A stretch of DNA of 64,000 bases from an uncultured Gemmatimonadota bacterium (GTDB taxonomy: Bacteria > JAAXHH01): positions 2,176,001-2,240,000 of the forward strand of contig OX638340.1 of NCBI GenBank assembly GCA_951812955.1. The letters run 5' to 3'. The first letter of the stretch is position 1. Each line of letters opens with the position of its first letter. This document shows positions 6,101 through 60,507 of this stretch, piece by piece. The notes beneath the pieces are model-generated. The model was given only the letters and a program-made list of their open reading frames with translations, had not been told where the DNA came from and made no database searches. Made by a program: the position numbers and the translations under genes.

Positions 6101-6901
6101 TCAGGAACCCGCTAGCACCAGTTCCAGGTGGGTTTCAGGCATCAGGCCGTCCACCAGGGCAACGGGTTGCCATGTCCACGTGGCCTGCCAGCGGTGACCG
6201 CGCTGATCGATCACCTGTCTCCTAAGCAGACTAATTCGCCAAACATCTCCCGCGGCGGGCGGCGTAGACTGCCCGTCTACCAGCCATTTGAAACCTTCCC
6301 AGGGCAGGGCCAGTTCCACAGTCCAGCCCCGGTCGACCCGGTCTCGCCTTCCCGGTTCGCCGTTCACTTTCACACCGGCCTGCAAGCCGGGAAACTTCCA
6401 GTCCGAGAAAGCCCACCGCATGGCGCGGATGTCGGTCCTCGTATGGCCGCCCAGCACCTCGGGCCGGTGCACCGCCAGGTCGAATTCCGGCACGTCGAAG
6501 CGGCCATCGTCCCGGTAGGCTTCCTTCCAGATGTAGAACATCTCCGAAGTCGCACCCAGCGGATTGACCGCAAGGTCGTAATACGCGCCGGGGCCGGTAA
6601 TCAACACGCCCACGTGACTGTTCTGGCGGACCTCGTTCCCGGCATCCTCATGCACGGCCTGTATATCGCGGTCCTCCAGCCAGAACCCGATGTAGAGGCC
6701 GTGGTCGTCCCAGGCCATGGACGCCGTTGTATCGAACAGGGCCCGCGCGCCGGAATGATCGCTGAACAGCGGGGAACGCTCTGCCTGTACCCACGTTTCC
6801 TCGCCGAGGTTGCCGTCTACGACGAGGTGCTCCCGGGTTCTGGCGCATGCATATCGCATGGGCTTCGTTGCCGCGGTCGGGCGCATCTTACTGCCCATCA
6901 T
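6101..6901 (-). CDS. CBM9-like / DOMON-like carbohydrate-binding domain protein (paralog 1)
   Basis: Motifs VVDGNLGEETW and WDDHGLYIGFWLEDRDI. Paralogous to the next gene. Confidence 0.5.
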   Translation of the reverse strand: MMGSKMRPTAATKPMRYACARTREHLVVDGNLGEETWVQAERSPLFSDHSGARALFDTTASMAWDDHGLYIGFWLEDRDIQAVHEDAGNEVRQNSHVGVLITGPGAYYDLAVNPLGATSEMFYIWKEAYRDDGRFDVPEFDLAVHRPEVLGGHTRTDIRAMRWAFSDWKFPGLQAGVKVNGEPGRRDRVDRGWTVELALPWEGFKWLVDGQSTPPAAGDVWRISLLRRQVIDQRGHRWQATWTWQPVALVDGLMPETHLELVLAGS

Positions 6902-7760
6902 GCCCTCCTACCACGCTGCCTGCTTCCTCACCCACCACCTTCTTGGTGAAATGAATCACGCTGAATCGATCGGGGATGTGGGAGTCGTATATCCCGTGGC
7001 TGTTCCAGGCCCACCCCGGACATGTTTTGAAGCCGCCTTCGTCGATCCACTGGAACCGCGAGAAATCCATGCGCCAGGTATCTCCTTCCTGGGCCGGCAG
7101 CGAGCGGCCGTCCGCCAGGTGCTTCAATCCCTGCCAGGGGAAGGCGATCTCGGCCGTCCACCCGCGGTCCCTGTCGCTCGGATCGTTGATGGTGCCGTCC
7201 ACGTGCACCGCCCACTTCATTCCCGGCATGTCCCATTCGCGAAAGACCCAGCGGCGCCCGCGGGGATGGGCGTGACCCGTCTTCGTGCCGCCGAGGGTAT
7301 CCACCAGGTCGGTGCCCTGCAGGTCGAATTCGGGAATCGTGCCGTATCCGCCTTTCGCGTAGGCGTCCTGCCACACGTAGAATCTTTCCATGATCGTCCC
7401 AAGGGGGTTCAGTTCGAATTCGTAGTAAGTGTCTTCCCCGGCGATGAATACCTCCACGTCGTTCTCCTCGCAGATCATGGAATCGCGCTCCGTGTACGTC
7501 GCCCGCACGTCGGGATCCTCCACCCAGAAGCCCACGTACAGGTAGTCGTCGTCCCAGAGCACCGCAGCCCGCGTATCGAACAGCGCCGGGCGGCCCGGCT
7601 CTTCCAGGTCCTCGAACCGCGGCGATCGGGCCGCCTCCTGCCAGGACGCCTCGTCGAGACGGCCATCCACCACGATAGGACCGTTGGTCCGGCAGGCGGT
7701 GTAGTGCTTCAATCCTTCTTCCGAATAGCCCCAGTTGCTGGTCATGCGCTTGTTCTCCAT
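6888..7760 (-). CDS. CBM9-like / DOMON-like carbohydrate-binding domain protein (paralog 2)
   Basis: Motifs VVDGRLDEASW and LWDDDYLYVGFWVEDPDV, collinear with the 6101-6901 product. Tandem duplication. Confidence 0.5.
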   Translation of the reverse strand: MENKRMTSNWGYSEEGLKHYTACRTNGPIVVDGRLDEASWQEAARSPRFEDLEEPGRPALFDTRAAVLWDDDYLYVGFWVEDPDVRATYTERDSMICEENDVEVFIAGEDTYYEFELNPLGTIMERFYVWQDAYAKGGYGTIPEFDLQGTDLVDTLGGTKTGHAHPRGRRWVFREWDMPGMKWAVHVDGTINDPSDRDRGWTAEIAFPWQGLKHLADGRSLPAQEGDTWRMDFSRFQWIDEGGFKTCPGWAWNSHGIYDSHIPDRFSVIHFTKKVVGEEAGSVVGGHDGQ

Positions 7761-7884: not shown

Positions 7885-8928
7885 CTACTCCCTCCAAGGA
7901 ACTTCCAGCCCGAATTTCGCCGCGACCTCGATGAGCTTATCCCGGGTGCCGACAGGCAGGGGGATGCCGTGCTCGATGCGCTCCAGGCGAACGCGTTCCT
8001 CCGGCTCGCCGGGTACGAAGAGTTCGTCGACTCCTTCGACGCGCGGCAGGCCTTTCATGGCAGAGACCAGGTCATCGATCTGCGTGTGGTACACATCCGG
8101 ATCGGTGAACGCCGCGATATCGATGGCGCCGATGAAACTATTCTGCACCCCGGGACGGGCACCCGGTCCCGAGATGGCGGCCGTCAACAGCGGATTCCCG
8201 ACCATCAGACTCGACAGGCACTCGAAGATGAGGGCCAGGCCGTAGCCCTTGTAGCCGGCGGCCGGTTGCAGGAACCGGGCCTGGTGGGGATCCGTCGTCG
8301 GATGGCCGTCTCCGTCGAGCGCCCACGTGTCGGGAATGGACTCGCCCCGGTCCATCGCCACGTCCAGTTTGCCGAAAGCGGCCACGCTCGTGGCCATGTC
8401 CAGGGATATGGTGCGGCCATCGCTTCCCGGTACCGCGATGGCGATCGGACTGTTGTGCACGCCCGGTGCCCGCGCGCCAGGCGGCGCCATGTTCGGGGGA
8501 TTGCATACGGAAGCAATCCCGGCCATGTTTTCCCGGGCGGCCATCTGCGCGTAGTACGCCATGGCGCCCTGGTGAGTCGTGTTGCGGATAAGCACCCATC
8601 CGATGCCTGCCCCGCGGGCCTTTTCGATGGCCTGCTTCATGGCGAAGGTCGTAACCACCGGCCCGAAGGCACGGTCGGCCTCGATGAGCAACGTGGCGGG
8701 CGTCTCCCTTTCGATCCGGATGTCCGGCCGGGGATTGTAGTGTCCGGCTTCCACTGAATGGACATATCCGTTGACCCGCTGGACGCCGTGGGAGTCCACC
8801 CCTCGCAGGTTGGCCCAGACCAGCACTTCCGCTTCCACGGCCGCGTCCACAGGCGGCAGGCCGGCCTGCTCGAAGACCGCCGCCGTGAACTCCTGCAATT
8901 CCTTCCAATCTACGCGGATGTCCGCCAT
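7885..8928 (-). CDS. Ldh_2 family malate/L-lactate/sulfolactate dehydrogenase-like oxidoreductase
   Basis: Family-typical segments (SHGVQRV, GYKGYGLAL). Likely start MADIRVDWKEL at 8928 rather than the extended ORF start. Confidence 0.7.
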   Translation of the reverse strand: MADIRVDWKELQEFTAAVFEQAGLPPVDAAVEAEVLVWANLRGVDSHGVQRVNGYVHSVEAGHYNPRPDIRIERETPATLLIEADRAFGPVVTTFAMKQAIEKARGAGIGWVLIRNTTHQGAMAYYAQMAARENMAGIASVCNPPNMAPPGARAPGVHNSPIAIAVPGSDGRTISLDMATSVAAFGKLDVAMDRGESIPDTWALDGDGHPTTDPHQARFLQPAAGYKGYGLALIFECLSSLMVGNPLLTAAISGPGARPGVQNSFIGAIDIAAFTDPDVYHTQIDDLVSAMKGLPRVEGVDELFVPGEPEERVRLERIEHGIPLPVGTRDKLIEVAAKFGLEVPWRE

Positions 8929-9231
8929 GCGCCGTCCTTTCCAATCACATTTCACCAAACCGTTCCTTCCAATGCGTTTCATGCCGCCGGACGCCGTCGC
9001 AAGCAACATGAAGCGCCGTCAGACTGCCGTAAGATAGATGGTCGGATCATGCCACGCCAGGGGTTACTTCCCAGACGGGATCCGGCTGGACGGAAACCGG
9101 AACGACGTCGTATGAGGCGCGGGTGACCGGGGCGATCCGCGCACGATCTTCATCGTTGACAAAGCACGGGCCGATCGGTAAAGTTCCCATGCACTCGGAG
9201 CGCAGCGGTATTCGTCTGATACGGCATAACT

Positions 9232-10838: not shown

Positions 10839-10975
10839 GGTTTTCTACGGCGCGGCAGGGGCGCTACAGGGGGGAACTATCGAGGAGTAACCAGAGCGCG
10901 GCCGGAGCGCAGCTGGAGCGCTACAGGGGCACTGCCGAGGGAGTTACCACAGCGCTACAAGGGTGCTAATGGGTC

Positions 10976-12208
10976 CTACCGAAAGGTATTGACGCCACCC
11001 GTCACCAGTTTCTCGAGCACGATAGACGCGGTGCGACCGACCTGTTCCGTGGAAGCGCGGTCTCGGAAGACGCGGTGGCCGCCTTCGGCGATTTTACGCT
11101 GCAGTTCGCGGTCTCCATGCAGCCGGCGGATGGCGCCGGCGAGCGCTTCCGGATCTCCGCGCCTGCACAGCAGAGCGCTTTCCCCGTCGGCCAACAGCTC
11201 CCGGATGGCCGGGGAGTCCGCGGTGATGACCGCTTTACCCGCCGAAAGCGCCACAAACACTTTGCCCGGTATCACTCGGGCCGCTTTGCCGGACGTGCCG
11301 AATATCCCCAGACATACGCCCTTTCCCTGCAGGAACCGATGGACTCGCTCGTAGGGTATCCAATCGGTGAAGCGTACGTTTTCCAGGTTCAGTCTCCGAG
11401 CGGTCTCGTGGATTTCGTCCGTCAGTTGACCCGTCCCAACGAAATGGAAGACGATATCCGGCATGTCCTTCAGGCGATTCGCCGCTTCCATCATGAACGG
11501 CAAGCCGTGAAGCGGGATGAACTTGCCGACGAACAGGACCCGGAACGGCGTGTCCCCGGAGCGATCCGGTCCGCTCAAATCCTCCGGCGCAACCGGTCCG
11601 CTCAGACCCTTCGACACGTTCTGTCCGCACAGACCCTCCGGCGCAACCGGCTCCACTGCGCCGACGAAGACACGGGAAAACCGGTCGCGCGGCAGATTGA
11701 ATGTATCCACGAAATAGTCGATGTGGGCGTCCGTATCCAGAAGCACGAGGTCCGCCTTCGCGCAGGTCTGCCGGTCCAGCCAGCGCAGGAAACGGCTCGT
11801 CAGCGTGCCTTCCGCAATGGACCGGCGGTCGTCGACCAGGGTGTCGTAAAGAGAGACCAGCGGACTGAATACGAGGGGCCGCCGCGGAAACCGGGTGAGC
11901 AGCCATGCCAGCGGCATATCGAAATGGCCGATGTATCCGACCAGCATGACATCGTAGCGACCGACCGTGAAGAGGTACTTGAGCAACAGGCGGAGATAGG
12001 CCAGCTTCAGCTCGATGGCGCGCAAGACAAGCGAGAACGGGGCCAGGTACCTGCCGGTTTTGTCGCGTTCCTTCTCCCATAGGGGCACGTGGCACTCCAG
12101 CACCCGCCAGCCGGCTCGCGCAAGGCCATCGACGAGCGTTCGGTTACGCGGATAATCGCGTTCGTAAGTGCCAAAGAAGCAGATGCGACCATGTTGGGCG
12201 CGTGCCAT
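10976..12208 (-). CDS. Glycosyltransferase family 4 (GT-B, group 1)
   Basis: C-terminal E-x7-E-like region, GT1-type motifs, VFALSAGKAVITAD. Probable start MARAQHGRICFFG at 12208. Carries an internal short-repeat insertion (GPVAPEDLSGPDRSG). Confidence 0.7.
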   Translation of the reverse strand: MARAQHGRICFFGTYERDYPRNRTLVDGLARAGWRVLECHVPLWEKERDKTGRYLAPFSLVLRAIELKLAYLRLLLKYLFTVGRYDVMLVGYIGHFDMPLAWLLTRFPRRPLVFSPLVSLYDTLVDDRRSIAEGTLTSRFLRWLDRQTCAKADLVLLDTDAHIDYFVDTFNLPRDRFSRVFVGAVEPVAPEGLCGQNVSKGLSGPVAPEDLSGPDRSGDTPFRVLFVGKFIPLHGLPFMMEAANRLKDMPDIVFHFVGTGQLTDEIHETARRLNLENVRFTDWIPYERVHRFLQGKGVCLGIFGTSGKAARVIPGKVFVALSAGKAVITADSPAIRELLADGESALLCRRGDPEALAGAIRRLHGDRELQRKIAEGGHRVFRDRASTEQVGRTASIVLEKLVTGGVNTFR

Positions 12209-12212
12209 GGTA

Positions 12213-13181
12213 TCATCCCAGCCGTTCCCGGACGGCGTAGTCTTCCGTGCGCCGGGCCTGGTGGGCAATCATTTCCGCGATCAGCCCCATGGATACGAGC
12301 TGAATGCCGAGGACCATGAGGAGTACGGAGAACAGCAACAGGGGACGGGTTCCGATGCCGACTCCACTCAACCAGAGCCAGGACAGGTAGAGCGCGATGG
12401 CGAATCCGGCGCCGAAAGACAGCAGGCCGAATGAGCCGAAGAGATGCAGAGGGCGCCGGGTGTAATTGGAAACGAAATACACGGTCAGCAGGTCGAAGAA
12501 CCCGTGGGTGAACCGCCCCAGTCCGAACTTGGTGTGCCCGTGCTTCCTTGGGTGATGCAGTACCTGCGTTTCCGTCACGCGGAAACCGGCCCAGTGCGCC
12601 AGCACCGGCAGATAACGGTGGAGTTCCCCGTAGACGGGAATGGTTTCCACCACTTCACGGTTGTAGGCTTTCAGCCCGCAGTTGAAATCGTGCAGTCGCA
12701 GGCCGCTGACGATACCCGTTACCCAGTTGAACAGCTTCGAGGGGATTCGCTTGGACAGGGGATCCTTCCGGGTTTTCTTCCAGCCGGAGACCAGGTCGAA
12801 GCCCTCGCTCAGCAGGTCGACCATGCCGGGCGCTTCCGCGGGATCGTCCTGCAGGTCGGCGTCCATCGTCACGACGACATCGCCGTGGCTCGCTTCGAAG
12901 CCGACGGCCAGCGCCGCGGACTTTCCATAGTTGCGGCGGAACCGGATAGCCCGGATCCGATCATCATGCTCCCTGAGCCCGCGTATCGTCCCGAAGGACT
13001 CATCACGGCTGCCGTCGTCGATATAGATCACCTCGAAGGACTTTCCCGACGCCTCGAGGGCCGCGACAATACGTTCATGGAGTTCCGGCAGGCTCTCTGC
13101 CTCGTTGAACAGGGGAACGACGACGGATATGTCCACCTTTTCCTCCCTATCATCCGTTTTTTTCGGGTCGTCAAGCGGCAT
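12213..13181 (-). CDS. GT2 polyprenyl-phosphate glycosyltransferase (Dpm1/ArnC/GtrB-like) with a C-terminal membrane anchor
   Basis: VVVPLFNE, YIDDGSRD and DADLQDDP (DxD) motifs. Two C-terminal TM helices. Confidence 0.8.
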   Translation of the reverse strand: MPLDDPKKTDDREEKVDISVVVPLFNEAESLPELHERIVAALEASGKSFEVIYIDDGSRDESFGTIRGLREHDDRIRAIRFRRNYGKSAALAVGFEASHGDVVVTMDADLQDDPAEAPGMVDLLSEGFDLVSGWKKTRKDPLSKRIPSKLFNWVTGIVSGLRLHDFNCGLKAYNREVVETIPVYGELHRYLPVLAHWAGFRVTETQVLHHPRKHGHTKFGLGRFTHGFFDLLTVYFVSNYTRRPLHLFGSFGLLSFGAGFAIALYLSWLWLSGVGIGTRPLLLFSVLLMVLGIQLVSMGLIAEMIAHQARRTEDYAVRERLG

Positions 13182-14298
13182 CAGTACTTTCCCCTATTGA
13201 ACGCTGGATCACCCGCAGCGTCTGCCGAGCCGTGTTTTCCCAGGTGTAACGCCTGCTCCTCTCCAGGGCGTTCCCAGCGAGCCGTTCACGCTCTTCCTGG
13301 TCACGCAGCAGGCCGATCAACGCGCGTGCCATGGCCTTCCGGTCACCGAGGGGGACCAGCACGCCCGTTTCACCGTCGACCACGGCGTCGCGGAGTCCGG
13401 GCACCCGGGTAGCCACGACCGGTACACCGCAGGCATTGGCCTCGATCACGGTAATGCCCCATCCTTCCTTGCTCGAGGGATAGGCCGCTACTTCGGCGCG
13501 GGTCAGCATGCGCACTTTTTCTTCCTCGGAAACGTAACCCGTGAAATGCACCACATCACCCAGGCCCATGGATTGGGCCAACGATTCAAGCGCGCGCCGC
13601 CTGTCGCCCCCGCCCACGATCATCAGGCGCGCATCGGGGATCTTTTCGCGAACGATTGCCATGGCCTGGATCAGGTGGTCCACGTTCTTGTACTTCTTCA
13701 GACGGCCGAGGTAGATTACCAGCCCGGAATCCTTGCCGTCCGGCGCGGCCGGCGCATCGATGATCCCGGCGTCGAGCCCGTTGTGTACGACGCTGATCCG
13801 GTCCGCCGCGACCCCCATCCGGACGAGTTCGTCCCGGGTGCTTTCCGATACCACTTCAAAGAGACAATGCCGGTATACCCGCGGAATCAACCGTTCCATG
13901 AAGTACAGGCAGGTCGCGAGCACCGGGTTGATTTCCCGGTAGAACGTGGTCCCGAAAAGATGGTGCAGCAGGACCATCACCGGGGGGGCGTTCAGAAACC
14001 AGGGCAGCAGGGCGGGTATCTTGTTGATGTCTTCGATGACGACGTCGAAGGGCCGGTGGGAAAGGCGCCTGCGATAGTGCCACGGGACGGTCAGGTTGAA
14101 CGTCCATTTCCCGCCGAGACGGATGACTTCGATCCCGTCTACTTGCTCGGATTCTGTGGCGCCGGGGAACCTGCTACAGAGCAGGGTGACCTGGTGTCCC
14201 CATTCCGCGATCCGTGAGAAAGTCTCGTGCAGGTGCACTTCGGCGCCGCCCGCTTCCGGGTTGCGGATATCCCTCCAGTTAATGACCAGAATGCGCAT
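13171..14298 (-). CDS. Glycosyltransferase family 4 (GT-B)
   Basis: EGWGITVIEANACGVPVVAT GT1 motif. Probable start MRILVINW at 14298. Confidence 0.75.
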   Translation of the reverse strand: MRILVINWRDIRNPEAGGAEVHLHETFSRIAEWGHQVTLLCSRFPGATESEQVDGIEVIRLGGKWTFNLTVPWHYRRRLSHRPFDVVIEDINKIPALLPWFLNAPPVMVLLHHLFGTTFYREINPVLATCLYFMERLIPRVYRHCLFEVVSESTRDELVRMGVAADRISVVHNGLDAGIIDAPAAPDGKDSGLVIYLGRLKKYKNVDHLIQAMAIVREKIPDARLMIVGGGDRRRALESLAQSMGLGDVVHFTGYVSEEEKVRMLTRAEVAAYPSSKEGWGITVIEANACGVPVVATRVPGLRDAVVDGETGVLVPLGDRKAMARALIGLLRDQEERERLAGNALERSRRYTWENTARQTLRVIQRSIGESTDAA

Positions 14299-14317
14299 TT
14301 GCCCGAACCCGGCGCGC

Positions 14318-17050
14318 CTAGGGACCGCCTGTGTCGCCGGTATCCTGACCGCCTGCGTCGCCGACCTCGCCAAGATCATCGATCATCGCCTGTACGACCG
14401 AATCTTCCGGTGCGATCCGCAGCCACCTTTCGAGGGTCTCCAGCATGCGTGCCGTATCCTGCTGCAGGTAGTAGAGGTTCACCAATTGGTCGTATCCCGC
14501 GGTGTATTCCGGGAATGCCGCCACGCCTCGTTCGAGCAAGGCTGTGGCCTCATCGATCCGGCCCTGTTTTCTCATGGCTTGTGCAAGCGCCGTATACCCG
14601 TCGAAGGTCTTGTATGCGCCGGCCAGCTCGAAAGCATGGGGTTCGACATCCGCAAACACGCCCTTGTCTGCATAAAACTGGATGAGCATCAGTCGTTCCA
14701 GCACCCCGTTGCTGATGTCGTATTCCAGGTACTTCTCGATGGCGGCGATGGCCTGGTCGATTTCACCCCTTCTCCAGCGATTGAGCGCCAGTTGATGGAA
14801 GGATACGGTGTAATTCCGCAGGAGGGTGCGAATCTGCCTGTCCTTGTATACCTCCGGGTCCGCAATGCCGCGATACCGGTAGACGTTCCATAGATTGTGC
14901 TCTGTCCTGTCGAGGTCCATGAGTTCCGGGTTGGGGTCTCGGACGACCTGCCACACCATGCCTTCCAGCTGCAGGTATTCGTCCAGGCCCACGTCGTTCT
15001 CCGGCGAAACGGTTACGGCGAAATAGACGGGCCTGGTCCAGTTGTTCTGTTCCAGGATGTGCAAGATCATCAGATCCTGCACCCTCAGGTATCCGATGTC
15101 CTCCCCAAGCGTACCGGCCCTCGGCACGGTCCACGTGAGCCCGGCGATCTCGACCTCCCTGTCGTCCCAGCCCTGGACGTTCAAGGACTCGATGGTCTCA
15201 TCGGGCAGCGCGATCGGCACCCGGGGCTCCTGGTACTTCAACTGCTTGATGTACCAGTCGGTATTGAGCAGGCTGAGATTGATCACCCGCACATCCTTGC
15301 GTATGCCTTCCACTTCCTGCAGGAACCAGAGGGTGAAGGTGTCGTTGTCGCCGTTGGTGAAGATGAGGCCGTTCTCTTCGCACGACTGCAGTATGTTGTA
15401 CGCGTAGTCGTACGGGATATAGTTGCCTTCGCGCGAGTGGGACTCGTAATGATAGGTGAAAGGTACGAGCGGAAGGGCGAGCGACAGCATGGCGATTCCC
15501 GCGGTTCCTTTTTCCACGGGCAACCGTAAGCGTTCCAGCCACATCGCTATTTGTCCCAACAGCGACCGGACGCCGATTCCCATTAGTATCGCGGTATAGA
15601 CGAAGGCCGGCGTATAGAAATAATCCCGGATGCGCACCTCGCGCTGTATGCCCTGGCTGCCGTCGGAAAAATTCATGTACAGGATGAGTCCGATACTGCA
15701 GGTGAGCAGCATCCCACCCAGGAACAGGATGCTTCTCCGGTCACGCTCCGCCTGGGTGAGGATTCCCAGGGCGACCAGCAGGACGGGGAGTAGCCAGTAG
15801 GGGAAGCCGGGATCGTTGAACTGCCGGGAAAAGAAACGCCAGAACCCCATGTTTTCGCCATCGCCGAACTGGGACGACCAGCTTCCTTTGCGATTGAACA
15901 TCGATTCGAGCATGCTTTCCTGTCCGTATTGCTTACGCTCCAGGAATCCCTCGAAATTCTTCCAGTTCGACGGGTCATTCTCGTTGATGACCGGCTGTTG
16001 CGCCGCCCGGATCGGCACGTAGAAGTTCACGGAGTATCCCAGCACGGCCATGCAGAGCACGATGAGCCAGAAAGGCCACTTGTACCGGCCAGGATCATCA
16101 GCCGTCGCGGAGACCAGCGCGAGAGCCAGGCTCACCAGCGCCACGCTGAACATGACCGTTCCCCAGGTGGCCTCGAATCCGCCGATACCAAGCAGCGGAA
16201 GTCCGTTGTATGAGCCTATTTCATCCAATCCGAATAACATCACGGCGACGGACAGGACGAATGCCAGCGCCGGGTAGCCCCAGGGCAGCCGTCCCCTGAA
16301 TAGAACCAGACCGGCGGCTGCGAGGGGGACCGCGAGGAAAAACACGTCGATGGAGGCCACGACACTGAACAGGATAAGGCCCATGACCGCGCCCAGCAGA
16401 ATCAGCTTCCTGTTCGACCAGATCAACCTGTCCGTACAGATCACGCTCAGAAAAGCGGCGGGCAGGACGAGCATGGTGAACATGTGCACCGCTATGCCGA
16501 GAAAAGCAAGGTAAGCGACCAGGAAGAGATACCGCTCGCTGCCGTCCTTATCGTGGTTTTCGATCCAGTGCAGGATCAGCCAGGTGCAAACCATCATGAA
16601 CAGCATGGAGAGCGCGTAGACCTCGGCTTCGACCGCGTTGAACCAGAAGGTATCGGAGAAAGCAAGCAGGAGCGCGCCGGTCAGTGCGCTGCAGCAAACG
16701 ACCAGGCTTTCATATAGGGTCAGTCCATTCCGTTCCCGGTTGAGCGTAACCGCCTTTACGATGACCAGGTAAACGGCCGACACAGTCAGCGCGCTGAAAA
16801 GGCACGAAGAGAAATTCACCAGCCAGGCGATGCCCAAGCCCAGGTCGGGCAGCAAGGTGAACAGGCGACCGATCAGGATGTAGAGCGGGGATCCGGGAGG
16901 ATGGGGTATGCCGAGGGTATAGGATGCTGCAATGAATTCACCCCCGTCCCAGAAAGGCACGGTTGGCGCGATGGTCTTGGTGTATACGGCCAGCGACACG
17001 ATGAAGGCGGCCGCCATGCCGATCATGGACACAACGCGATATGCGGACAT
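14318..17050 (-). CDS. DUF2723-family integral membrane GT-C-like glycosyltransferase (TMEM260/PMT-like) with C-terminal TPR repeats
   Basis: 910 aa. About 11-13 predicted TM helices. First-loop motif PTVPFWDGGEF (a GT-C DE-type motif). TPR repeats in the last approx. 250 aa. Confidence 0.7.
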   Translation of the reverse strand: MSAYRVVSMIGMAAAFIVSLAVYTKTIAPTVPFWDGGEFIAASYTLGIPHPPGSPLYILIGRLFTLLPDLGLGIAWLVNFSSCLFSALTVSAVYLVIVKAVTLNRERNGLTLYESLVVCCSALTGALLLAFSDTFWFNAVEAEVYALSMLFMMVCTWLILHWIENHDKDGSERYLFLVAYLAFLGIAVHMFTMLVLPAAFLSVICTDRLIWSNRKLILLGAVMGLILFSVVASIDVFFLAVPLAAAGLVLFRGRLPWGYPALAFVLSVAVMLFGLDEIGSYNGLPLLGIGGFEATWGTVMFSVALVSLALALVSATADDPGRYKWPFWLIVLCMAVLGYSVNFYVPIRAAQQPVINENDPSNWKNFEGFLERKQYGQESMLESMFNRKGSWSSQFGDGENMGFWRFFSRQFNDPGFPYWLLPVLLVALGILTQAERDRRSILFLGGMLLTCSIGLILYMNFSDGSQGIQREVRIRDYFYTPAFVYTAILMGIGVRSLLGQIAMWLERLRLPVEKGTAGIAMLSLALPLVPFTYHYESHSREGNYIPYDYAYNILQSCEENGLIFTNGDNDTFTLWFLQEVEGIRKDVRVINLSLLNTDWYIKQLKYQEPRVPIALPDETIESLNVQGWDDREVEIAGLTWTVPRAGTLGEDIGYLRVQDLMILHILEQNNWTRPVYFAVTVSPENDVGLDEYLQLEGMVWQVVRDPNPELMDLDRTEHNLWNVYRYRGIADPEVYKDRQIRTLLRNYTVSFHQLALNRWRRGEIDQAIAAIEKYLEYDISNGVLERLMLIQFYADKGVFADVEPHAFELAGAYKTFDGYTALAQAMRKQGRIDEATALLERGVAAFPEYTAGYDQLVNLYYLQQDTARMLETLERWLRIAPEDSVVQAMIDDLGEVGDAGGQDTGDTGGP

Positions 17051-17121
17051 GTTCAGCTATTCCCCTTGAGGTCTTTTATACGTCGGGACGTCACGATGTC
17101 GGCAGGCGAAGGATCCGGGAT

Positions 17122-17859
17122 TCACCGGCCGTATTCGAGCCGGTCAGCGAGCATTTCCGGCAGGCCGGCGTCTCGTATCTTCCGCTGCGCGGTTTCAAGG
17201 TCGTAGGCAACGCGCTTTATCTCGGCCCTTTTTTCCGCAGTGTCGTATATGCAGTAAGCCGCGCGGGGATCCCCGTCCCGCGGCTGGCCGACACTGCCCA
17301 CGTTCACGATGTATCTGCATTCCGAATCCATCCCGACCTCCGTCGCCGCGATCTGCCGGCTTCGGTCCGCCGTTGTCCGCTTTTCGAATATCCCCGGCGT
17401 GTGCGTATGACCCACTACGCAAAGCGCAATATCGCCGGGCATCGCATCGAATGCTTCATCCGTCAGCCAATGCGAAGTCAGGTATATCCAGTCCTCCGGG
17501 TTGGCCGGACTAGCGTGAACGGCGAAAAGATCGTCCTTCCGCCAAGTGTAGGGCAGTGTGCCCAGGTAGCGCCGGCCGGCGGGCGTAAGCTGCCGCCGCG
17601 TCCACAGAGCCGCCTCCGCGGCGTAGCGATTGAAAGTAGCGATATCCAGTCTGCCGATCGCGGCATGATCGTGATTGCCGGCGATCACGTCAGACGTCAG
17701 CCCGATAATGCGGTCGAGACACTCGTTTGGATTGGCTCCGTACCCGACCACATCGCCCAGACAGAGGTACCGGTCGATGCGTTCATCGGCAAGGGCTTCG
17801 AGTACGGCATCCAGCGCTTCCAGGTTTCCATGTGTGTCGGACAGCATGCCGTATCTCAC
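17122..17859 (-). CDS. Metallophosphoesterase (calcineurin-like; YfcE/MJ0936 type)
   Basis: Motifs MLSDTHGN, GDVVGYG, GNHD and VVGHTHT. Confidence 0.75.
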   Translation of the reverse strand: MRYGMLSDTHGNLEALDAVLEALADERIDRYLCLGDVVGYGANPNECLDRIIGLTSDVIAGNHDHAAIGRLDIATFNRYAAEAALWTRRQLTPAGRRYLGTLPYTWRKDDLFAVHASPANPEDWIYLTSHWLTDEAFDAMPGDIALCVVGHTHTPGIFEKRTTADRSRQIAATEVGMDSECRYIVNVGSVGQPRDGDPRAAYCIYDTAEKRAEIKRVAYDLETAQRKIRDAGLPEMLADRLEYGR

Positions 17860-17908: not shown

Positions 17909-18343
17909 TCAGGTTTGGTCCGTCTCCACCAGATGCTTCGCGGCCACTGCGTCCAGGACGCCATTTACGAACCCGCCGGACTGTTCCGTGCTGTACTTCT
18001 TGGCCAGTTCGATCGCTTCGTTGATGGAAACCGCCGTCGGTATATCGAGAAAGGCGATGAGTTCGCAGGCGCCCAGCCGGAGGATGCAGTCGTCGATGCG
18101 GGCCACGCGGTCCCGGTCCCAGTGCCGCACCACCGCGTTGATGTGACTGTTCACGGTCTCTTCATGCTGGCGGAGCCGATCGATCAGCGTTTCGGCGAAA
18201 CGCCGGGTGTTGCGTGACGCCAGGGACCACCCGGGCAGCCTTGGAAGGGCCTTGCCGGGGTCGTCTCCGGTCTGTTCGGCGAGGTAAAGCGTCTGAAGCG
18301 CCAGTTCACGGCCCAGGCGGCGCTCTCCCGCGCGTGCATTCAC
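17909..18343 (-). CDS. nusB: Transcription antitermination factor NusB
   Basis: [13 protein letters not shown]...NGVLDAVA is the NusB fold. Probable GTG start at 18343 immediately after the ribH stop. The upstream ORF extension is Arg-rich read-through. Confidence 0.7.
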
Positions 18344-18882
18344 TCCCGTTCCCTCGTTCCGTCCTGCCTGTCCTGCCCGTTCGTTCCGTCCTGCCCTCCC
18401 GGTGCGCGCTGCCCGTCTAGCCTGCGCATCAAGTCCGCCATTTCCAGCGCGGCCAGGGCGGCGTCCCAACCCCTGTTGCCGGCCTTCGTACCTGCGCGTT
18501 CGATGGCCTGTTCGAGGTTTTCTGTGGTCAGCACGCCGAAGATCACCGGCACCCCGGTATCCCTGGCGGCAGCGGCAATGCCCTTCGCCGATTCCCCGGC
18601 CACGTAATCGAAATGGGGAGTCGCGCCGCGGATGACGCATCCCAGGCAGATCACGGCGTCATAGATGCCGCTTGCCGCCATCTTCCGGGCCGCCAGCGGG
18701 ATCTCGAAGGCGCCGGGCACCCAGACCACGTCGATCCGGTCTTCATCCACTCCATGGCGGCGCAGTCCATCCAGCGCGCCCTTCAGCAGGGACTCGCTGA
18801 TAAACCCGTTGAAGCGGCCGGCCACGATACCGTACCGGTCGCCACTCCCGTTGACCAGGCTGCCTTCGATGGTTTTCGTCAC
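18340..18882 (-). CDS. ribH: 6,7-dimethyl-8-ribityllumazine synthase with a repeat-encoded Gly/Gln/Asp-rich C-terminal tail
   Basis: [12 protein letters not shown]...WVPGAFEIP is canonical RibH. The last approx. 25 aa are encoded by the (gttccgtcctgcc)n repeat at 18345-18420. Confidence 0.85.
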
Positions 18883-18900
18883 GAACTCGCTCCTTGCGGA

Positions 18901-20160
18901 TCACAGCAGGCTGTCGAAACTGATTTCGTCCGGCGGCTCGTCGAGATCCAACAGGTGGCCGAGTTTGCCGCGCTTGGTCTTGAGATAACCCACGTTGTAC
19001 CGGTTCGGCGACGTCTGCAGCGGGACGCGTTCGGTCACTTCGAGACCGTACCCCTCGATCCCTATCCGCTTCGACGGATTGTTGGTCATGATCCGGATCG
19101 TGGTCAAGCCCAGGTCCGCCAGAATCTGGGAACCGATCCCGTAGTCGCGGGCGTCCACGGGAAGCCCCAGCGCCTGATTTGCTTCCACCGTATCATGGCC
19201 CTGGTCCTGCAGGGCGTAGGCCCTGAGCTTGTTGGCCAATCCGATGCCCCGTCCTTCCTGGCGCATGTACAGCAACACGCCGCTCCCCTCGTCGCTGATG
19301 CGCTTGAGCGCCTGCTGCAACTGGTCGCCGCAGTCGCATCGCATGGACCCGAATACGTCTCCCGTGAGACATTGTGAGTGCACGCGGACGAGCACGTTCC
19401 GCTCGCCGTCCACGTTGCCCTTGACCAGGGCGACGTGGTGGTCGCCGGTCAGGTCGTCTTCGTACAGGTGGGAGTCGAATTCCCCGTACTTGCTGGGGAT
19501 GGTCGTCGTGACCACCCGCTTGACGAGTTTCTCGCTGGCCCGGCGATACTCGATAAGGTCCTTGATGGTGATGATCTTCAGGTCATGATCTTTCGCGATC
19601 TCCACAAGCCGGGGCAGACGGGCCATGGCCCCATCGTCGTCCATGATCTCGCAGAGCACGCCGGCGGGGTAGAGACCGGCCAGCTTCACCAGGTCGACGG
19701 TGGCCTCCGTGTGTCCGGCTCGCCGCAACACGCCGCCGTCGAAGGCCTGCAGCGGAAAGATATGGCCCGGACGGGCAAGGTCCTCGGGCCTGCTGCCCGG
19801 ACGGACGAATACCTGTACCGTCTCGGCGCGGTCCGCCGCGGATATGCCCGACGTCGTGCCGTTTACGGCATCGACGGATACGGTGAAGCGCGTGCCCAGC
19901 AAGGCCGTGTTGACCTCTTCGCCGACCATGGCAGGCACCTTCAGCTCTTCCAGGCGTTCGCGCGAGGTCGGAAGGCAGATCAGTCCACGACCATACCGGG
20001 CCATGAAGTTAATGGCCGCCGGAGTCGTTCTTTCGGCGGCCATGATAAAATCGCCTTCATTTTCGCGATCTTCGTCGTCGATGACTATAAGTATGCGCCC
20101 GGCCTTGATCTCTTCGATGGCTTCGGGGATGGTACTAAAGGGGGACGGCATGGAGTTCAA
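18901..20160 (-). CDS. ribBA: Bifunctional 3,4-dihydroxy-2-butanone-4-phosphate synthase / GTP cyclohydrolase II
   Basis: 419 aa with a DHBP synthase N-terminal half (RENEGD) and a GTP cyclohydrolase II C-terminal half (CxCG...C zinc motif). Confidence 0.85.
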   Translation of the reverse strand: MNSMPSPFSTIPEAIEEIKAGRILIVIDDEDRENEGDFIMAAERTTPAAINFMARYGRGLICLPTSRERLEELKVPAMVGEEVNTALLGTRFTVSVDAVNGTTSGISAADRAETVQVFVRPGSRPEDLARPGHIFPLQAFDGGVLRRAGHTEATVDLVKLAGLYPAGVLCEIMDDDGAMARLPRLVEIAKDHDLKIITIKDLIEYRRASEKLVKRVVTTTIPSKYGEFDSHLYEDDLTGDHHVALVKGNVDGERNVLVRVHSQCLTGDVFGSMRCDCGDQLQQALKRISDEGSGVLLYMRQEGRGIGLANKLRAYALQDQGHDTVEANQALGLPVDARDYGIGSQILADLGLTTIRIMTNNPSKRIGIEGYGLEVTERVPLQTSPNRYNVGYLKTKRGKLGHLLDLDEPPDEISFDSLL

Positions 20161-20229
20161 TCGTGTTTTCGGTTACCCGGACAGCGTGCGTCCCGGTCTG
20201 TATTCGAGCCGCCGCCAGGCTTTACCGAC

Positions 20230-20889
20230 CTACATTTTTTCTCTCAACCAGGCTTCGGTGATGGGTGAGACATCCTGGTCACCGCCGGGATGAGCATTCC
20301 GGCCGGTATGCATAAGGGACGCGACGTAACGGCCGATCATGTCCACTTCTATGTTGATCTCGTCACCGATCTGCCTGCTTCCGAACGTCGTAATCGACGC
20401 GGTATGAGGTATGATCGATACGGCTGCCAAATTACCCGCCAGACCGGCGATTGTCAAGCTAATTCCATCCAGCGCGATGGACCCTTTCTCGATGACGAAG
20501 GGCGTCAGATCGTCCGATATTTCCACCTCGTACCACAGGCTGTTGCCCTGTTCTTCCCGCGCTGCGATCCGCCCCACGCCGTCCACGTGGCCCTGCACCA
20601 GGTGGCCGTCTATCCTGTCCGATAGGCGCATCGGCCGCTCCAGGTTCACCCTGTGCCCGACCTGGAGATTCTCGAAGGTCGTCCGGGAAACCGTCTCGGG
20701 TACGATTTCCACGGAAAACGCCTCGTCGCCGTAATCCACAATGGTCAGGCAGACCCCGTTGACTGCGACGCTGGCGCCCTGCACCAGGTCCGGTGCCATG
20801 GACGGCGCCTCCACCGTCAGTTTCAGGCCGTCCCGGCCACCGTCGAGGGCCTGGATCAGACCCGTGGTTTCAACGATTCCCGTGAACAT
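20230..20889 (-). CDS. ribE: Riboflavin synthase alpha subunit
   Basis: MFTGIV start and duplicated lumazine-binding halves (VNGVCLTI / LDGISLTI). Confidence 0.85.
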   Translation of the reverse strand: MFTGIVETTGLIQALDGGRDGLKLTVEAPSMAPDLVQGASVAVNGVCLTIVDYGDEAFSVEIVPETVSRTTFENLQVGHRVNLERPMRLSDRIDGHLVQGHVDGVGRIAAREEQGNSLWYEVEISDDLTPFVIEKGSIALDGISLTIAGLAGNLAAVSIIPHTASITTFGSRQIGDEINIEVDMIGRYVASLMHTGRNAHPGGDQDVSPITEAWLREKM

Positions 20890-21004
20890 GGATGCTACTC
20901 CTCGTATCCTGCGCTGCGCCCGGCGATATGCCCATGATCTCTTAAGGCGTACGCCGGCGTTCCCCTGACCTCTTCAGCCGTACACCGGCATTTCCTCAAT
21001 CTCT

Positions 21005-22099
21005 TCAGCCGTATAATGGCGTTCCCGTGATGAGAAAATCGCCGCCCAACCGTTCCACCTGCGGATCGTTCAGGTCGATCGCCTTCGAGAGATCGTCCAG
21101 TTGCAGGCCGGCGATCGAGGGGATCCCCGCGCCCAGAATGCGCGGCGCGACGAAACAGGCGATCCGGTCTACGGCCTTTTCCCGAAGGAATGAAGCGGCC
21201 ACGCGGCTTCCGCCTTCCACCATTAGGGTCACGATCCCTGACCTGCCAAGTGCCGATTTGAGCGGATCCACGGGGACAGATCCGTCCCCGCCTTCCATTA
21301 CGAGCACTTCGGCGCCCGCCCCTTTCAGCCCGTTTATCCGATCTGCCGGCGCCGCTTCCGTAACGCACACGGTCGCCGGCGCGTCACCATTCAATATACG
21401 CGCGTCCAGCGGAGTCCGTGCCCGGCTGTCGAGCACGATGCGACGGGGCTGTCGGCCGTCCACGTGCCGGACCGTGAGCCGCGGGTCGTCCGCCAGCACG
21501 GTGTCGATGCCCACGAGCACGGCGTCCGCCCGGCTGCGCATCAGGTGTACCCGTTTTCTGGCGGCCTCCCCGGTGATCCACTGCGATTGGCCGTTCCGCG
21601 TGGCGATGCGGCCATCCAGCGTCTGGGCCAGCTTGAGCAGCACGAAGGGCTGGCCGGTTGTCCGGTGGTGGACATAGGCCGCGTTCAGTTCCCGCGCTTC
21701 CGCCTCCAGGAGGCCCGTCTCCACTGCGATACCCGCGGCGCGCAACCTTTCAATCCCCTTGCCGGAAACGCGCCGGTCCGGATCGGCCATGGCGAGGTGG
21801 ACGCGGACGATGCCCGACGCGATAATCGCGTCCGTGCACGGAGGCGTACTGCCCTGGTGGCAGCAGGGTTCCAGGGTAACGTACAACTCGGCCCCTCGAC
21901 CGCGGTCGCCGGCTTCGCGCAGGGCCTGGGGCTCCGCGTGCTGTCCTCCGTATTCCCCGTAGTATCCCCGGCCCAGAACGATGCCGTCGCGGACGACCAG
22001 AGATCCCACCATGGGATTGGGACTGGTCCGGCCAATTCCCTGCTCCGCCAGGTCCAGTGCCTGGCGCATGAATAACGCGTCTTTTTCCGATTTCGTCAT
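21005..22099 (-). CDS. ribD: Bifunctional diaminohydroxyphosphoribosylaminopyrimidine deaminase / 5-amino-6-(5-phosphoribosylamino)uracil reductase
   Basis: Deaminase HAE...PCxxC motif and a C-terminal RibD_C reductase domain. Probable start MTKSEKDALFMRQALDLA at 22099. Confidence 0.8.
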   Translation of the reverse strand: MTKSEKDALFMRQALDLAEQGIGRTSPNPMVGSLVVRDGIVLGRGYYGEYGGQHAEPQALREAGDRGRGAELYVTLEPCCHQGSTPPCTDAIIASGIVRVHLAMADPDRRVSGKGIERLRAAGIAVETGLLEAEARELNAAYVHHRTTGQPFVLLKLAQTLDGRIATRNGQSQWITGEAARKRVHLMRSRADAVLVGIDTVLADDPRLTVRHVDGRQPRRIVLDSRARTPLDARILNGDAPATVCVTEAAPADRINGLKGAGAEVLVMEGGDGSVPVDPLKSALGRSGIVTLMVEGGSRVAASFLREKAVDRIACFVAPRILGAGIPSIAGLQLDDLSKAIDLNDPQVERLGGDFLITGTPLYG

Positions 22100-22146
22100 G
22101 GCGTAAGCTAGGGTATCTGCGAAGAAGGTGTCAAGGCCTTTTGCCC

Positions 22147-22175
22147 TTGACAACAGGGGGTTCGCCCCCTAGTTT
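22147..22175 (+). promoter_or_regulatory. Sigma70-like promoter for ilvE (TTGACA-17-TAGTTT)
   Basis: TTGACA at 22147-22152, a 17-nt spacer that is itself a GGGGGTTCGCCCCC hairpin, then TAGTTT at 22170-22175, about 65 nt upstream of the ilvE ATG. The -35 lies inside a palindrome (GTCAAGGccttttgCCCTTGAC) that also reads TTGACA on the minus strand, toward ribD. Confidence 0.45.
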
Positions 22176-59236: not shown

Positions 59237-60376
59237 CTAAGCCGCCATTTCCTTGCCCTGAGCTTCCCTTATGCACTCCGCGAGAATGGGTATGCCATCG
59301 CGGATATCCTCAATCGTGGGGAAACCGTACGCGATGCGCAGGTAGGGAATATCCTCTCCCAGGGCGCTGAATCCCTGCCCCGGCGTGTAGTAGACGTCGC
59401 GGCTTGCCGCCAGTTGGTGGGCCTTGCGCGTGTCCGTCGCCGATGGGATCCGTACCCACACGAACATGCCGCCGGGCGGATCCGTCCACCAGACCTCATC
59501 GCCCAACGCGCCGAAGTGGGCCTCCAGCGATTCGACGACCGCGTCCTTGCGCGCTTTCATGACGCGGTTCACTTCTGCGATGTGGTCCCATAGATGCTCG
59601 CCGAAGTATTCCGCTACGATCATGCTCGCCAGGGCGTTCGTCCCTCCGTCCATCTTGTTGGCCATGATCCGCTGCTGCAACGCCTCCGGGGCCATGAAAT
59701 AACCCTGCCTCACGCCTGGTCCGAGTATCTTGGAGAAAGAACCGACGTAAACGACCCGTTCGTCTTCGTCCAGATGATACAGGTTCGGCGGCACCGGATC
59801 GGACTGGAACACGATGTCCCCGTAGCAGTGGTCGTCCACGACCGGCGTATCAAACTCGCGAGCCAATTCGAGCAGGCGTTCCCGCCGTTCCAGCGGCATG
59901 ATAGAGCCCGTTGGATTGTGATGGGTGGGGATGGTGTAGATGAACTTCGGCGGCGTTCCCGCGTCGACAAGACCCTGCAATACGGTCTCCAGTTCGTCCG
60001 TGACCAGTCCCTGTTCGTCGAGCGGCGCAGGCACGATGCGCACCTGCCTGCTGCGAAACACACTCAACGAGCCGCCGTAAGAAAAGGATTCCGTGACGAT
60101 CGTGTCTCCGGGTGACGCGAAGGCGTCCGTGATCAACTGCAGCGCCTGCATCGAACCAGAGGTTAAAACGATCTCTTCCAGGGGCACCGCTCGTCCAGTG
60201 CCGCGCGCGAATCGCTGCGAAGCGATGGCTCTCAACGGTTCGTATCCCCGGCCGTCCGGGTAGTTTACCAGTTCCGAGCCGCGTGCGGCAATGACCTTTG
60301 CCGCGGCCTCGGCCAGCGCATCTGACGGGAAGGACAGGGGGTCGGGCCGTCCGGCGCCTAGATTGATCTCACGCAT
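59237..60376 (-). CDS. PLP-dependent aminotransferase, class I/II fold (2-aminoadipate/aromatic aminotransferase-like)
   Basis: 379 aa. PLP-lysine context YVGSFSKILGPGVRQGY. GC-rich like the backbone. Confidence 0.7.
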   Translation of the reverse strand: MREINLGAGRPDPLSFPSDALAEAAAKVIAARGSELVNYPDGRGYEPLRAIASQRFARGTGRAVPLEEIVLTSGSMQALQLITDAFASPGDTIVTESFSYGGSLSVFRSRQVRIVPAPLDEQGLVTDELETVLQGLVDAGTPPKFIYTIPTHHNPTGSIMPLERRERLLELAREFDTPVVDDHCYGDIVFQSDPVPPNLYHLDEDERVVYVGSFSKILGPGVRQGYFMAPEALQQRIMANKMDGGTNALASMIVAEYFGEHLWDHIAEVNRVMKARKDAVVESLEAHFGALGDEVWWTDPPGGMFVWVRIPSATDTRKAHQLAASRDVYYTPGQGFSALGEDIPYLRIAYGFPTIEDIRDGIPILAECIREAQGKEMAA

Positions 60377-60507
60377 CGATTTGCTCCTGCAGAACTTGGA
60401 TGTATTAGTATCGGTTTTTTGCTGCTAAATACAATCAGGATATCTCACCAACTAGATGGTGTTACAGTCTCAGTGTTTAATGGTAATGGAGAACTGCACT
60501 GTCTTTG

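Follow-up and report, generated by a model that had tools for sequence, protein, structure and literature searches.

In a 64,000-nucleotide stretch of DNA from an uncultured Gemmatimonadota bacterium (contig OX638340.1, positions 2,176,001 to 2,240,000 of the forward strand; hereafter the window, in whose own coordinates all positions are given), four tightly packed open reading frames (ORFs) on the minus strand, 17050→10976, encode a membrane glycosyltransferase of the GT-C type that is related to human TMEM260, together with three further glycosyltransferases. An earlier annotation made by a model from the letters alone (the original prediction) had described a glycosylation cluster of a DUF2723 GT-C enzyme, one family 2 (GT2) and two family 4 (GT4) glycosyltransferases here; an ORF check placed all four genes as described, and Pfam hidden Markov models matched each of them. 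We propose that the cluster is a lipid-carrier-dependent periplasmic glycosylation module and that the acceptor of its GT-C enzyme is most likely serine or threonine of exported proteins, an interpretation drawn from homology and gene context to which we give an even chance. In transcription order, with the domains of the GT-C enzyme indicated, the cluster comprises the following features.

14318 to 17050, minus strand: TMEM260-like (DUF2723, GT117-type) GT-C glycosyltransferase, 910 amino acids (PF11028)
15437 to 17050, minus strand: transmembrane GT-C domain, residues 1–538, with predicted periplasmic loops (62-sequence alignment)
14840 to 15436, minus strand: predicted periplasmic Rossmann-like domain, residues 539–737, with an invariant TNGDNDTF motif; strands alternate with helices in the AF2 model
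14354 to 14839, minus strand: C-terminal TPR domain, residues about 738–899, with helical repeats at 738–899 in the AF2 model
13171 to 14298, minus strand: GT4a, a cytoplasmic GT-B family 4 glycosyltransferase, 375 amino acids from the ATG at 14298 (PF00534, E 5.9e-48)
12213 to 13181, minus strand: GT2, a predicted polyprenyl-phosphate glycosyltransferase of the ArnC/GtrB class, 322 amino acids (Glycos_transf_2, E 3.4e-27)
10976 to 12208, minus strand: GT4b, a second cytoplasmic GT4, about 401–410 amino acids from the ATG at 12208 (PF13692, E 1e-19; PF00534, E 2.9e-18)

The TMEM260-like enzyme and the neighbouring glycosyltransferases

Pfam matched TMEM260_N (PF11028) to residues 35–206 of the 910-residue protein at 180.4 bits against a gathering cut-off of 24.2 (E 3.7e-53), and TPR repeats to residues 751–889 at its C terminus (TPR_14, E 5.6e-10). 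The TMEM260_2 domain (PF28495), which was scored on homologues rather than on the window protein, was matched in P0001, a 97%-identical protein, and in all close homologues. A single-sequence search of the whole protein against PDB returned human TMEM260 (9RQL, E 5e-18), which was also the sole solved-structure match of a profile built from 20 homologues over the N-terminal 744 residues (E 1.2e-39), and the multi-pass transmembrane fold is superimposable on solved GT-C enzymes. The original prediction had named this protein a DUF2723 GT-C enzyme carrying C-terminal TPR repeats. The Pfam score and the identity of the only PDB match confirm the first point, and the TPR matches, the helical repeats of the AF2 model and a periplasmic placement by topology count bear out the second.

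Human TMEM260 (CAZy family GT117; PDB 9RQL, 9RQM and 9RQN) is a protein O-mannosyltransferase of the endoplasmic reticulum that acts on the IPT domains of plexins, cMET and RON. A 2026 cryo-electron microscopy preprint (bioRxiv 10.64898/2026.03.17.711096) describes it as a GT-C wrist, a variable transmembrane module, a luminal Rossmann-like palm and TPR fingers; mutagenesis in the same work showed that D52 and H67 of the sugar-recognition motif, R264 and Y267 of the donor-loading loop and R355 are needed, as is the palm residue D441, the catalytic base. The bacterial protein shares with TMEM260 the Pfam architecture of TMEM260_N, TMEM260_2 and then TPR, with extracytoplasmic Rossmann-like and TPR domains following the transmembrane domain. 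It also keeps four of these residues: D52 corresponds to D35 (motif FWDGGEF), H67 to H50 (GIPHPPG), R355 to R475 (EVRIRDYF) and G440-D441 to G567-D568 (TNGDNDTF; D568 is encoded at 15347–15349). D35, H50, R475 and D568 are invariant across a 62-sequence alignment in which identity falls to 36%, and the family-invariant residues of the transmembrane domain comprise D35 (16946–16948), H50 (16901–16903), E141/E143, H189, R372-x-x-Y375 and R473/R475 (15626–15634).

The two proteins are nevertheless distant: the two segments that HMMER aligned amount to only about one third of the 910-residue protein, and TMEM260 has 11 transmembrane helices, whereas about 15 transmembrane segments were counted from the hydrophobic helices of the model of the window protein. 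In this topology, lysine and arginine make up 20% of the loops assigned to the cytoplasm versus 6% of those assigned to the periplasm, as the positive-inside rule requires, and every invariant loop, like the Rossmann-like and TPR domains, comes to lie on the predicted periplasmic side. Unlike TMEM260, the enzyme would reside in the bacterial inner membrane, where undecaprenyl presumably takes the place of dolichyl as the carrier, and its gene shares a putative operon with those of a predicted donor synthase and the GT4 enzymes.

The GT2 protein carries, in its GT-A domain, DADLQDDP at residues 107–114 (12840–12863; DxD motif DAD, 107–109) and two C-terminal hydrophobic segments, 247–265 and 283–301, that form a transmembrane hairpin, as the original prediction had noted in describing this motif and a two-segment anchor. 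Its residues 17–306 align with residues 9–296 of ArnC (9bhc, E 6e-53), that is, over the full length including the hairpin, which is also included in the matches to Synechocystis GtrB (5eke, E 4.7e-34; 5ekp, E 6.1e-34). This full-length similarity puts the protein in the ArnC/GtrB class of polyprenyl-phosphate glycosyltransferases, in keeping with the prediction of a donor-making enzyme rather than a synthase with a cytoplasmic product. The label 'Dpm1-like' holds at the level of the class but not of specific similarity, which is to ArnC and GtrB; the dolichyl-phosphate-mannose synthase (DPMS) of Pyrococcus furiosus matches the catalytic domain alone (residues 15–180, E 6.5e-17). We tried to assign the sugar from the order of similarity (ArnC, then PgfS, GtrB, AglJ and DPMS/PpgS). 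The NCBIfam scores for ArnC (195.7 bits, cut-off 529), PgfS (152) and AglJ (87) all lie far below the equivalog cut-offs, and the haloarchaeal dolichyl-phosphate-hexose transferase model scored 46.7 bits against 375; since the protein falls under every equivalog threshold, no sugar was assigned. The ArnC score, and the lack of arnA, arnB, arnD, arnT, arnE or arnF nearby, also led us to reject the protein as ArnC proper.

Both GT4 proteins, of the retaining GT-B type, have a Glyco_transf_4 N-terminal and a Glycos_transf_1 C-terminal domain, and no transmembrane segments were found in either. The longest ORF of GT4a spans 13171–14379, with a likely start at 14298, which is also the start annotated in a 97%-identical contig; that of GT4b spans 10976–12268, with a likely start at 12208. 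The closest solved structures to GT4a are PimA and MshA, with PimB' also among its best solved homologues. Identities as BshA, MshA, PimA, WaaG or N-acetylglucosaminyl-phosphatidylglycerol (GlcNAc-PG) synthase were each rejected for GT4a as far below cut-off (the last at 61 bits against 480), and no specific NCBIfam equivalog model reached its cut-off for GT4a or GT4b.

Locus and gene context across phyla

Upstream of the GT-C gene and on the same strand, Pfam identified ribD, ribE, ribBA, ribH, nusB and a calcineurin-like phosphoesterase, so that the directon runs from ribD to GT4b (22153→10976, minus strand).

17909 to 22153, minus strand: ribD-ribE-ribBA-ribH-nusB, housekeeping genes at the head of the glycosyltransferase directon (Pfam)
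17122 to 17859, minus strand: calcineurin-like metallophosphoesterase (YfcE-like; PF12850, E 1.3e-18), between nusB and the GT-C gene

The junctions from ribD to GT4b are, in order, +115, +69, +18, −4 (ribH/nusB, where nusB, with its GTG start at 18343, shares 4 nt with the end of ribH), +49, +71 (phosphoesterase/GT-C), +19, −11 (GT4a/GT2) and +4 nt. A consensus scan of the minus strand found no terminator-like sites between the cluster genes, and the 5 such sites counted over the whole region compare with 10.3 expected from shuffled sequence. Independent gene calls on a 97%-identical metagenome scaffold match the cluster boundaries. Gene order, junctions and terminator scan thus agree with the predicted co-directional cluster continuing the rib-nusB and phosphoesterase directon without an internal terminator. 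Co-direction, short or overlapping junctions, the absence of terminators and synteny in five phyla are together consistent with a single operon that includes rib-nusB, although the 71-nt gap before the GT-C gene (17051–17121) could house a promoter. No Rfam family, including the FMN riboswitch, which was sought to define the operon start, was found in the window at gathering thresholds.

At its two ends the directon is bounded by an aminotransferase-IV gene that diverges upstream of ribD and by a convergent pair of tsaB and a GNAT (rimI-like) gene at the 3′ side. An intrinsic terminator after GT4b was considered and rejected, the 137-nt convergent spacer folding no better than shuffled sequences (z 0.5). 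This spacer between rimI (plus strand) and GT4b (minus strand), 10839–10975, contains short direct repeats that recur about every 57 nt, TGTAGCGC being present three times and GGTWACTCC twice; within the window, CTGTAGCGC is restricted to it. The phosphoesterase keeps its position in Latescibacterota-like relatives and in Eisenbacteria (L037, 6315–7022; L052, 6260–6979; 46–49% identity); an LpxH-type role for it gained no support from NCBIfam.

The DUF2723 family is large: of 8,000 candidates that were scored, at least 2,750 match at E<1e-10, and the catalytic region has 16,394 representatives at 50% identity at E≤1e-3 (1,453 at E≤1e-30). To describe its neighbourhoods we took the best 80 of at least 596 DUF2723 loci, one genome per species, and clustered the ORFs within 7 kb of the GT-C gene. 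These 80 loci come from more than 12 FCB-group phyla and include Latescibacterota (82–86% identity), Zixibacteria, KSB1, Marinimicrobia, Ignavibacteria, Chlorobi and Bacteroidota, as well as Balneolales, Rhodothermales, Eisenbacteria, Cloacimonadota, Gemmatimonadota, Fibrobacterota and Calditrichota. All ten genes stand in the same order in four related contigs (L001, L002, L013 and L081), and the order rib-nusB-DUF2723 recurs in Zixibacteria (L011), Fibrobacterota (L019), Eisenbacteria (L037 and L052) and Ignavibacteria (L067). Both the domain E-values and the ten-gene synteny are far outside chance.

Recurrent neighbours lie nearly all on the strand of the GT-C gene. Among the 80 loci, the numbers having each class were as follows.

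GT4a orthologues (42–48% identity): 16 of 80
GT2s of the polyprenyl-phosphate-synthase class: 15 of 80
PF03706/TIGR00374 flippase-like membrane proteins: 11 of 80
another type of GT2: 11 of 80
S-adenosylmethionine (SAM) methyltransferase: 10 of 80
GT9 heptosyltransferase: 8 of 80

GT4a and the PF03706 flippase-like genes are linked to DUF2723 across phyla as tightly as GT2 is. GT4b was seen only in the four contigs with the full gene order, which are close relatives, and orthology with the GT4 that follows GT2 in Eisenbacteria L052 was rejected (27% identity, C-terminal domain only). In an extended Fibrobacterota operon (L019, metagenome-assembled genome (MAG) contig JAYUVP010000344.1, 8920–18269 for the genes from nusB on), overlapping or abutting genes follow the order ribBA, ribH, nusB, DUF2723, GT4a, PF03706 flippase-like gene, ArnC-like GT2 (53% identical to that of the window), RmlD-like reductase, short GT2 and 541-residue GT2. 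The RmlD-like rhamnose-pathway gene in this operon is of note, the conserved Bacteroidota O-glycan core having been reported as Man-Rha-GlcA. The Eisenbacteria order is nusB, phosphoesterase, methyltransferase, GT4a, flippase-like gene, DUF2723, GT2 (56%), GT4 and GT2. Synthase, flippase-like protein and GT-C enzyme form the trio that a lipid-linked-sugar pathway needs.

The same neighbourhoods bear on whether the genes belong together at all. If adjacency were incidental, the GT2 and GT4 enzymes would serve an unrelated exopolysaccharide or lipopolysaccharide (LPS) pathway, and the GT-C gene would be a housekeeping gene that trails rib-nusB, its product using a donor made elsewhere or being non-catalytic. 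Such an explanation could draw on the roughly 50 of the 80 loci where not one of the five neighbour classes tracked (glycosyltransferases or flippase-like proteins) lies within 7 kb, on the housekeeping genes recG, ybeY, a hemW-like gene and DUF1844 as common neighbours, and on the rib-nusB linkage, which is seen with or without GT2. We nonetheless consider it very improbable: GT2s of the polyprenyl-phosphate-synthase class are linked on the same strand in at least six phylum-level lineages, often with a flippase-like gene, genes overlap in the window (GT4a/GT2, 11 nt) and in the Fibrobacterota operon, and the invariance of all catalytic residues disfavours a non-enzymatic role.

Some loci differ in the number and build of the GT-C genes. 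Two full-length DUF2723 paralogues stand in tandem in Cytophagia, in KSB1 and in an unclassified MAG (L006, 10001–15364; L012, 581–5987; L015, 10001–15348), which suggests that acceptor or donor specificity has diversified within one genome. A Bacteroidota/Ignavibacteria subfamily of about 920 residues (L023, P0121–P0240) has TMEM260_N and TMEM260_2 but lacks a Pfam-detectable TPR, and a Cytophagales subfamily of about 995 residues has an extra domain (PF28497), from which it follows that the C-terminal module varies across the family. Members are present in the cultured Cytophagales Dyadobacter, Emticicia and Arcicella; members were sought in B. fragilis, F. johnsoniae and P. gingivalis, and the homologue searches returned only MAGs and Cytophagales.

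Proposed pathway and acceptor

In the pathway that we propose, the membrane-anchored GT2 would, by its class, load one sugar from a nucleotide sugar onto undecaprenyl phosphate at the cytoplasmic face. The undecaprenyl-phosphate sugar would then be flipped, presumably by a protein encoded elsewhere in the genome; in other phyla a PF03706 flippase-like gene lies in the orthologous clusters. The TMEM260-like enzyme would bind the donor in its transmembrane domain through D35, H50 and R475, and D568 of the Rossmann-like domain could act as general base for inverting transfer of the sugar to an acceptor hydroxyl. By whole-architecture homology with TMEM260, whose TPR domain and palm grip an extended peptide, the TPR domain would hold part of an exported protein in an extended form, and serine or threonine there would be the most likely acceptor. 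GT4a and GT4b, both cytoplasmic, would act in the same glycoconjugate pathway.

The combination of a donor synthase with a GT-C enzyme is textbook knowledge from ArnC/ArnT, GtrB/GtrC and Ppm1/Pmt. Actinobacterial Ppm1/Pmt (GT39), the eukaryotic PMT enzymes and TMTC1-4 likewise have a GT-C enzyme that uses a polyprenyl-phosphate sugar to modify serine or threonine of exported proteins, and the TMTCs combine the GT-C domain with luminal TPRs. In contrast to Pmt and the PMT enzymes, the window protein belongs to a different GT-C family, with no significant PMT or PMT_2 Pfam membership and no MIR domains, and the donor synthase is of the ArnC/GtrB type, unlike Ppm1 and Dpm1. A GtrB-class GT2 also stands beside an extracytoplasmic GT-C enzyme in GtrA/GtrB/GtrC, CsbB/GtcA/YfhO and PgfS/PgfM of Streptococcus mutans, systems that target O-antigen, teichoic acids or adhesins; their GT-C families differ from that of the window, which has no gene for a GtrA-like or other flippase.

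Two further comparisons are with lipid-modifying systems. In ArnC/ArnT, the undecaprenyl-phosphate-L-Ara4FN synthase and lipid A aminoarabinosyltransferase, and in the analogous synthase and GT-C pairs FlmF2/FlmK and LgmA/LgmB, the same succession of synthase, flipping and periplasmic GT-C enzyme is used, and ArnC, with the same transmembrane hairpin, is the protein most similar to the window GT2. However, the window has no arnA, arnB, arnD, arnE or arnF, its GT2 scores 196 against 529 bits, and ArnT, which lacks Rossmann-like and TPR domains, belongs to another sequence family (PMT_2 on the window enzyme, E 1e-3, below cut-off). The second comparison is with GpgS/GpgF, which make GlcN-phosphatidylglycerol in P. 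aeruginosa, and with MprF-type PplT flippases; here the likeness is the pairing of a GT4 with PF03706/UPF0104, a pair that flanks the GT-C gene in L019, L037 and L052, whereas the window has neither a PF03706 gene nor a deacetylase and GT4a scores 61 against 480 bits.

On a lipid-acceptor explanation the donor chemistry would be as proposed above, but GT4a would make a glycolipid or LPS-core intermediate (glycosyl-diacylglycerol, glycosyl-phosphatidylglycerol or a phosphatidylinositol mannoside (PIM)-like lipid are candidates) that is flipped, by PF03706 proteins in relatives, and the GT-C enzyme would decorate it or lipid A/core, in a scheme akin to ArnC/ArnT or mycobacterial PimA/PimB-Ppm1-PimE. 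That PimA, PimB' and MshA are the best solved homologues of GT4a, with the GlcNAc-PG synthase model also matched, speaks for it, as does the fact that in P. aeruginosa glycosyl-phosphatidylglycerol is both synthesised and exported by a GT4 paired with a UPF0104/PF03706 flippase (PMC12713373). In Ignavibacteria a GT9 heptosyltransferase, an LPS-core enzyme, lies directly downstream of the GT-C gene at eight loci, and ArnC and ArnT are the nearest relatives of GT2 and of the fold. Set against these points are the TPR domain and the base-supplying Rossmann-like domain, hallmarks of the protein-modifying TMEM260, the absence from the locus of donor-tailoring genes of the arnA/B/D type, and a GT2 score far under the ArnC equivalog cut-off. 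We know of no characterised lipid-modifying GT-C enzyme, among ArnT, PimE, Emb and Aft, that has TPRs or a Rossmann-like domain with a catalytic base. A lipid acceptor is a serious alternative, the main one to our proposal, though in our judgement less likely than a protein.

The cytoplasmic enzymes could instead build an oligosaccharide: GT2 would start a glycan on undecaprenyl phosphate, GT4a and GT4b would extend it in the cytoplasm and, after flipping, the GT-C enzyme would transfer it en bloc to protein as an oligosaccharyltransferase, on the model of AglJ/AglG/AglI acting on dolichyl phosphate in Haloferax. The presence of three cytoplasmic glycosyltransferases and one GT-C enzyme in one putative operon would suit this scheme, as would the match of the AglJ model to GT2 (87 bits) and the additional GT2 and GT4 genes, RmlD-like gene and methyltransferase of related clusters. 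We judge it improbable, because TMEM260 uses a monophosphate carrier and transfers one mannose only, and the residues with which it contacts the sugar are kept in the window protein, and because a Wzx-type flippase is absent; moreover, GT4b is confined to close relatives and the extra glycosyltransferases vary by phylum, so that no conserved oligosaccharide is implied.

Several observations weigh against transfer of a single sugar to exported proteins as we propose it. Two or more cytoplasmic glycosyltransferases in one cluster are superfluous for monosaccharide transfer, and the nearest relative of GT2, ArnC, makes the donor for lipid A modification and is not a mannose-specific synthase. No flippase gene was found in the 64-kb window by tblastn with 11 PF03706 neighbours of DUF2723; by the same method there was no methyltransferase, GT9 or second DUF2723 gene elsewhere in it. 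HMMER left the region of the TMEM260 donor-loop residues R264 and Y267 unaligned; R372-K-Q-Y375, which is invariant, has the same spacing and lies in a flexible periplasmic loop (pLDDT <50 at 374–376), is a candidate equivalent. The TPR region is weakly conserved, and the peptide-binding asparagine ladder of TMEM260, a further point of difference, could not be demonstrated in the 62-sequence alignment. A Pfam-detectable TPR is lacking from the large Bacteroidota subfamily described above, and we found no experiments on any bacterial DUF2723 protein in the searchable literature. With these points on the scale, protein O-glycosylation through a lipid-linked donor is the interpretation that we retain. 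The original prediction as a whole is supported, and the computational tests that might have overturned it, namely the DUF2723/GT-C match and the class of GT2, did not do so.

Other features of the window and significance of the family

Elsewhere in the window, a gene upstream of the divergent aminotransferase-IV gene (23281–28443, minus strand) encodes a protein of 1720 residues, predicted to lie at the cell surface, that combines Ig-like domains (Big_2 and Big_1) with a long array of LRRs and a region resembling Peptidase_M66; it could be an exported repeat protein of the kind that is glycosylated, and nothing ties it to the cluster. Two adjoining ORFs of 266 and 290 residues (6101–7760, minus strand) have weak CBM9-like carbohydrate-binding matches and adjoin a gene of the Ldh_2 malate/L-lactate dehydrogenase family (7885–9009, minus strand). 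The G+C content, about 0.62 elsewhere, falls to 0.456 at 60001–62215, where a gene resembling GmrSD_N (DUF262) restriction endonucleases lies (61136–62215, minus strand); it is followed by a 412-residue ORF with no Pfam match (62713–63951, minus strand); the low-G+C GmrSD_N region is probably a small acquired defence islet.

Taken alone, the window yields a well-supported functional annotation and no new mechanism. The family is already labelled in public databases, as DUF2723, as protein O-mannosyl-transferase family and as glycosyltransferase family 117 protein. A search of the literature on bacterial DUF2723, PF11028 and GT117 found only papers on human TMEM260 and no characterised bacterial member. 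According to a 2025 review (PMC12871550), the machinery that builds the conserved mannose-based core of the general Bacteroidota O-glycan is undiscovered, as are its flippase and the oligosaccharyltransferase; the review advises seeking homologues of eukaryotic O-mannosylation. The present family bears on these missing core enzymes, for which an FCB-wide TMEM260-like family, accompanied by conserved GT4, flippase-like and GT2 genes, is an obvious candidate. A broader and speculative proposal, which we regard as unlikely, is that TMEM260-like GT-C enzymes are ancestral, FCB-wide initiators of protein O-glycosylation that co-evolve with GT4, flippase-like proteins and undecaprenyl-phosphate-sugar synthases, and that they include the enzyme attaching the Bacteroidota mannose core. 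If this were true, the human congenital-disease enzyme TMEM260 would be descended from, or share common ancestry with, a bacterial system. With about 16,000 representatives at 50% identity, the family extends over essentially all FCB-group phyla, yet no bacterial member has a known substrate in the searchable literature; its invariant catalytic residues, which map onto those of TMEM260, and its expected pathway partners make it a concrete and testable candidate for a periplasmic glycosylation route not yet assigned.

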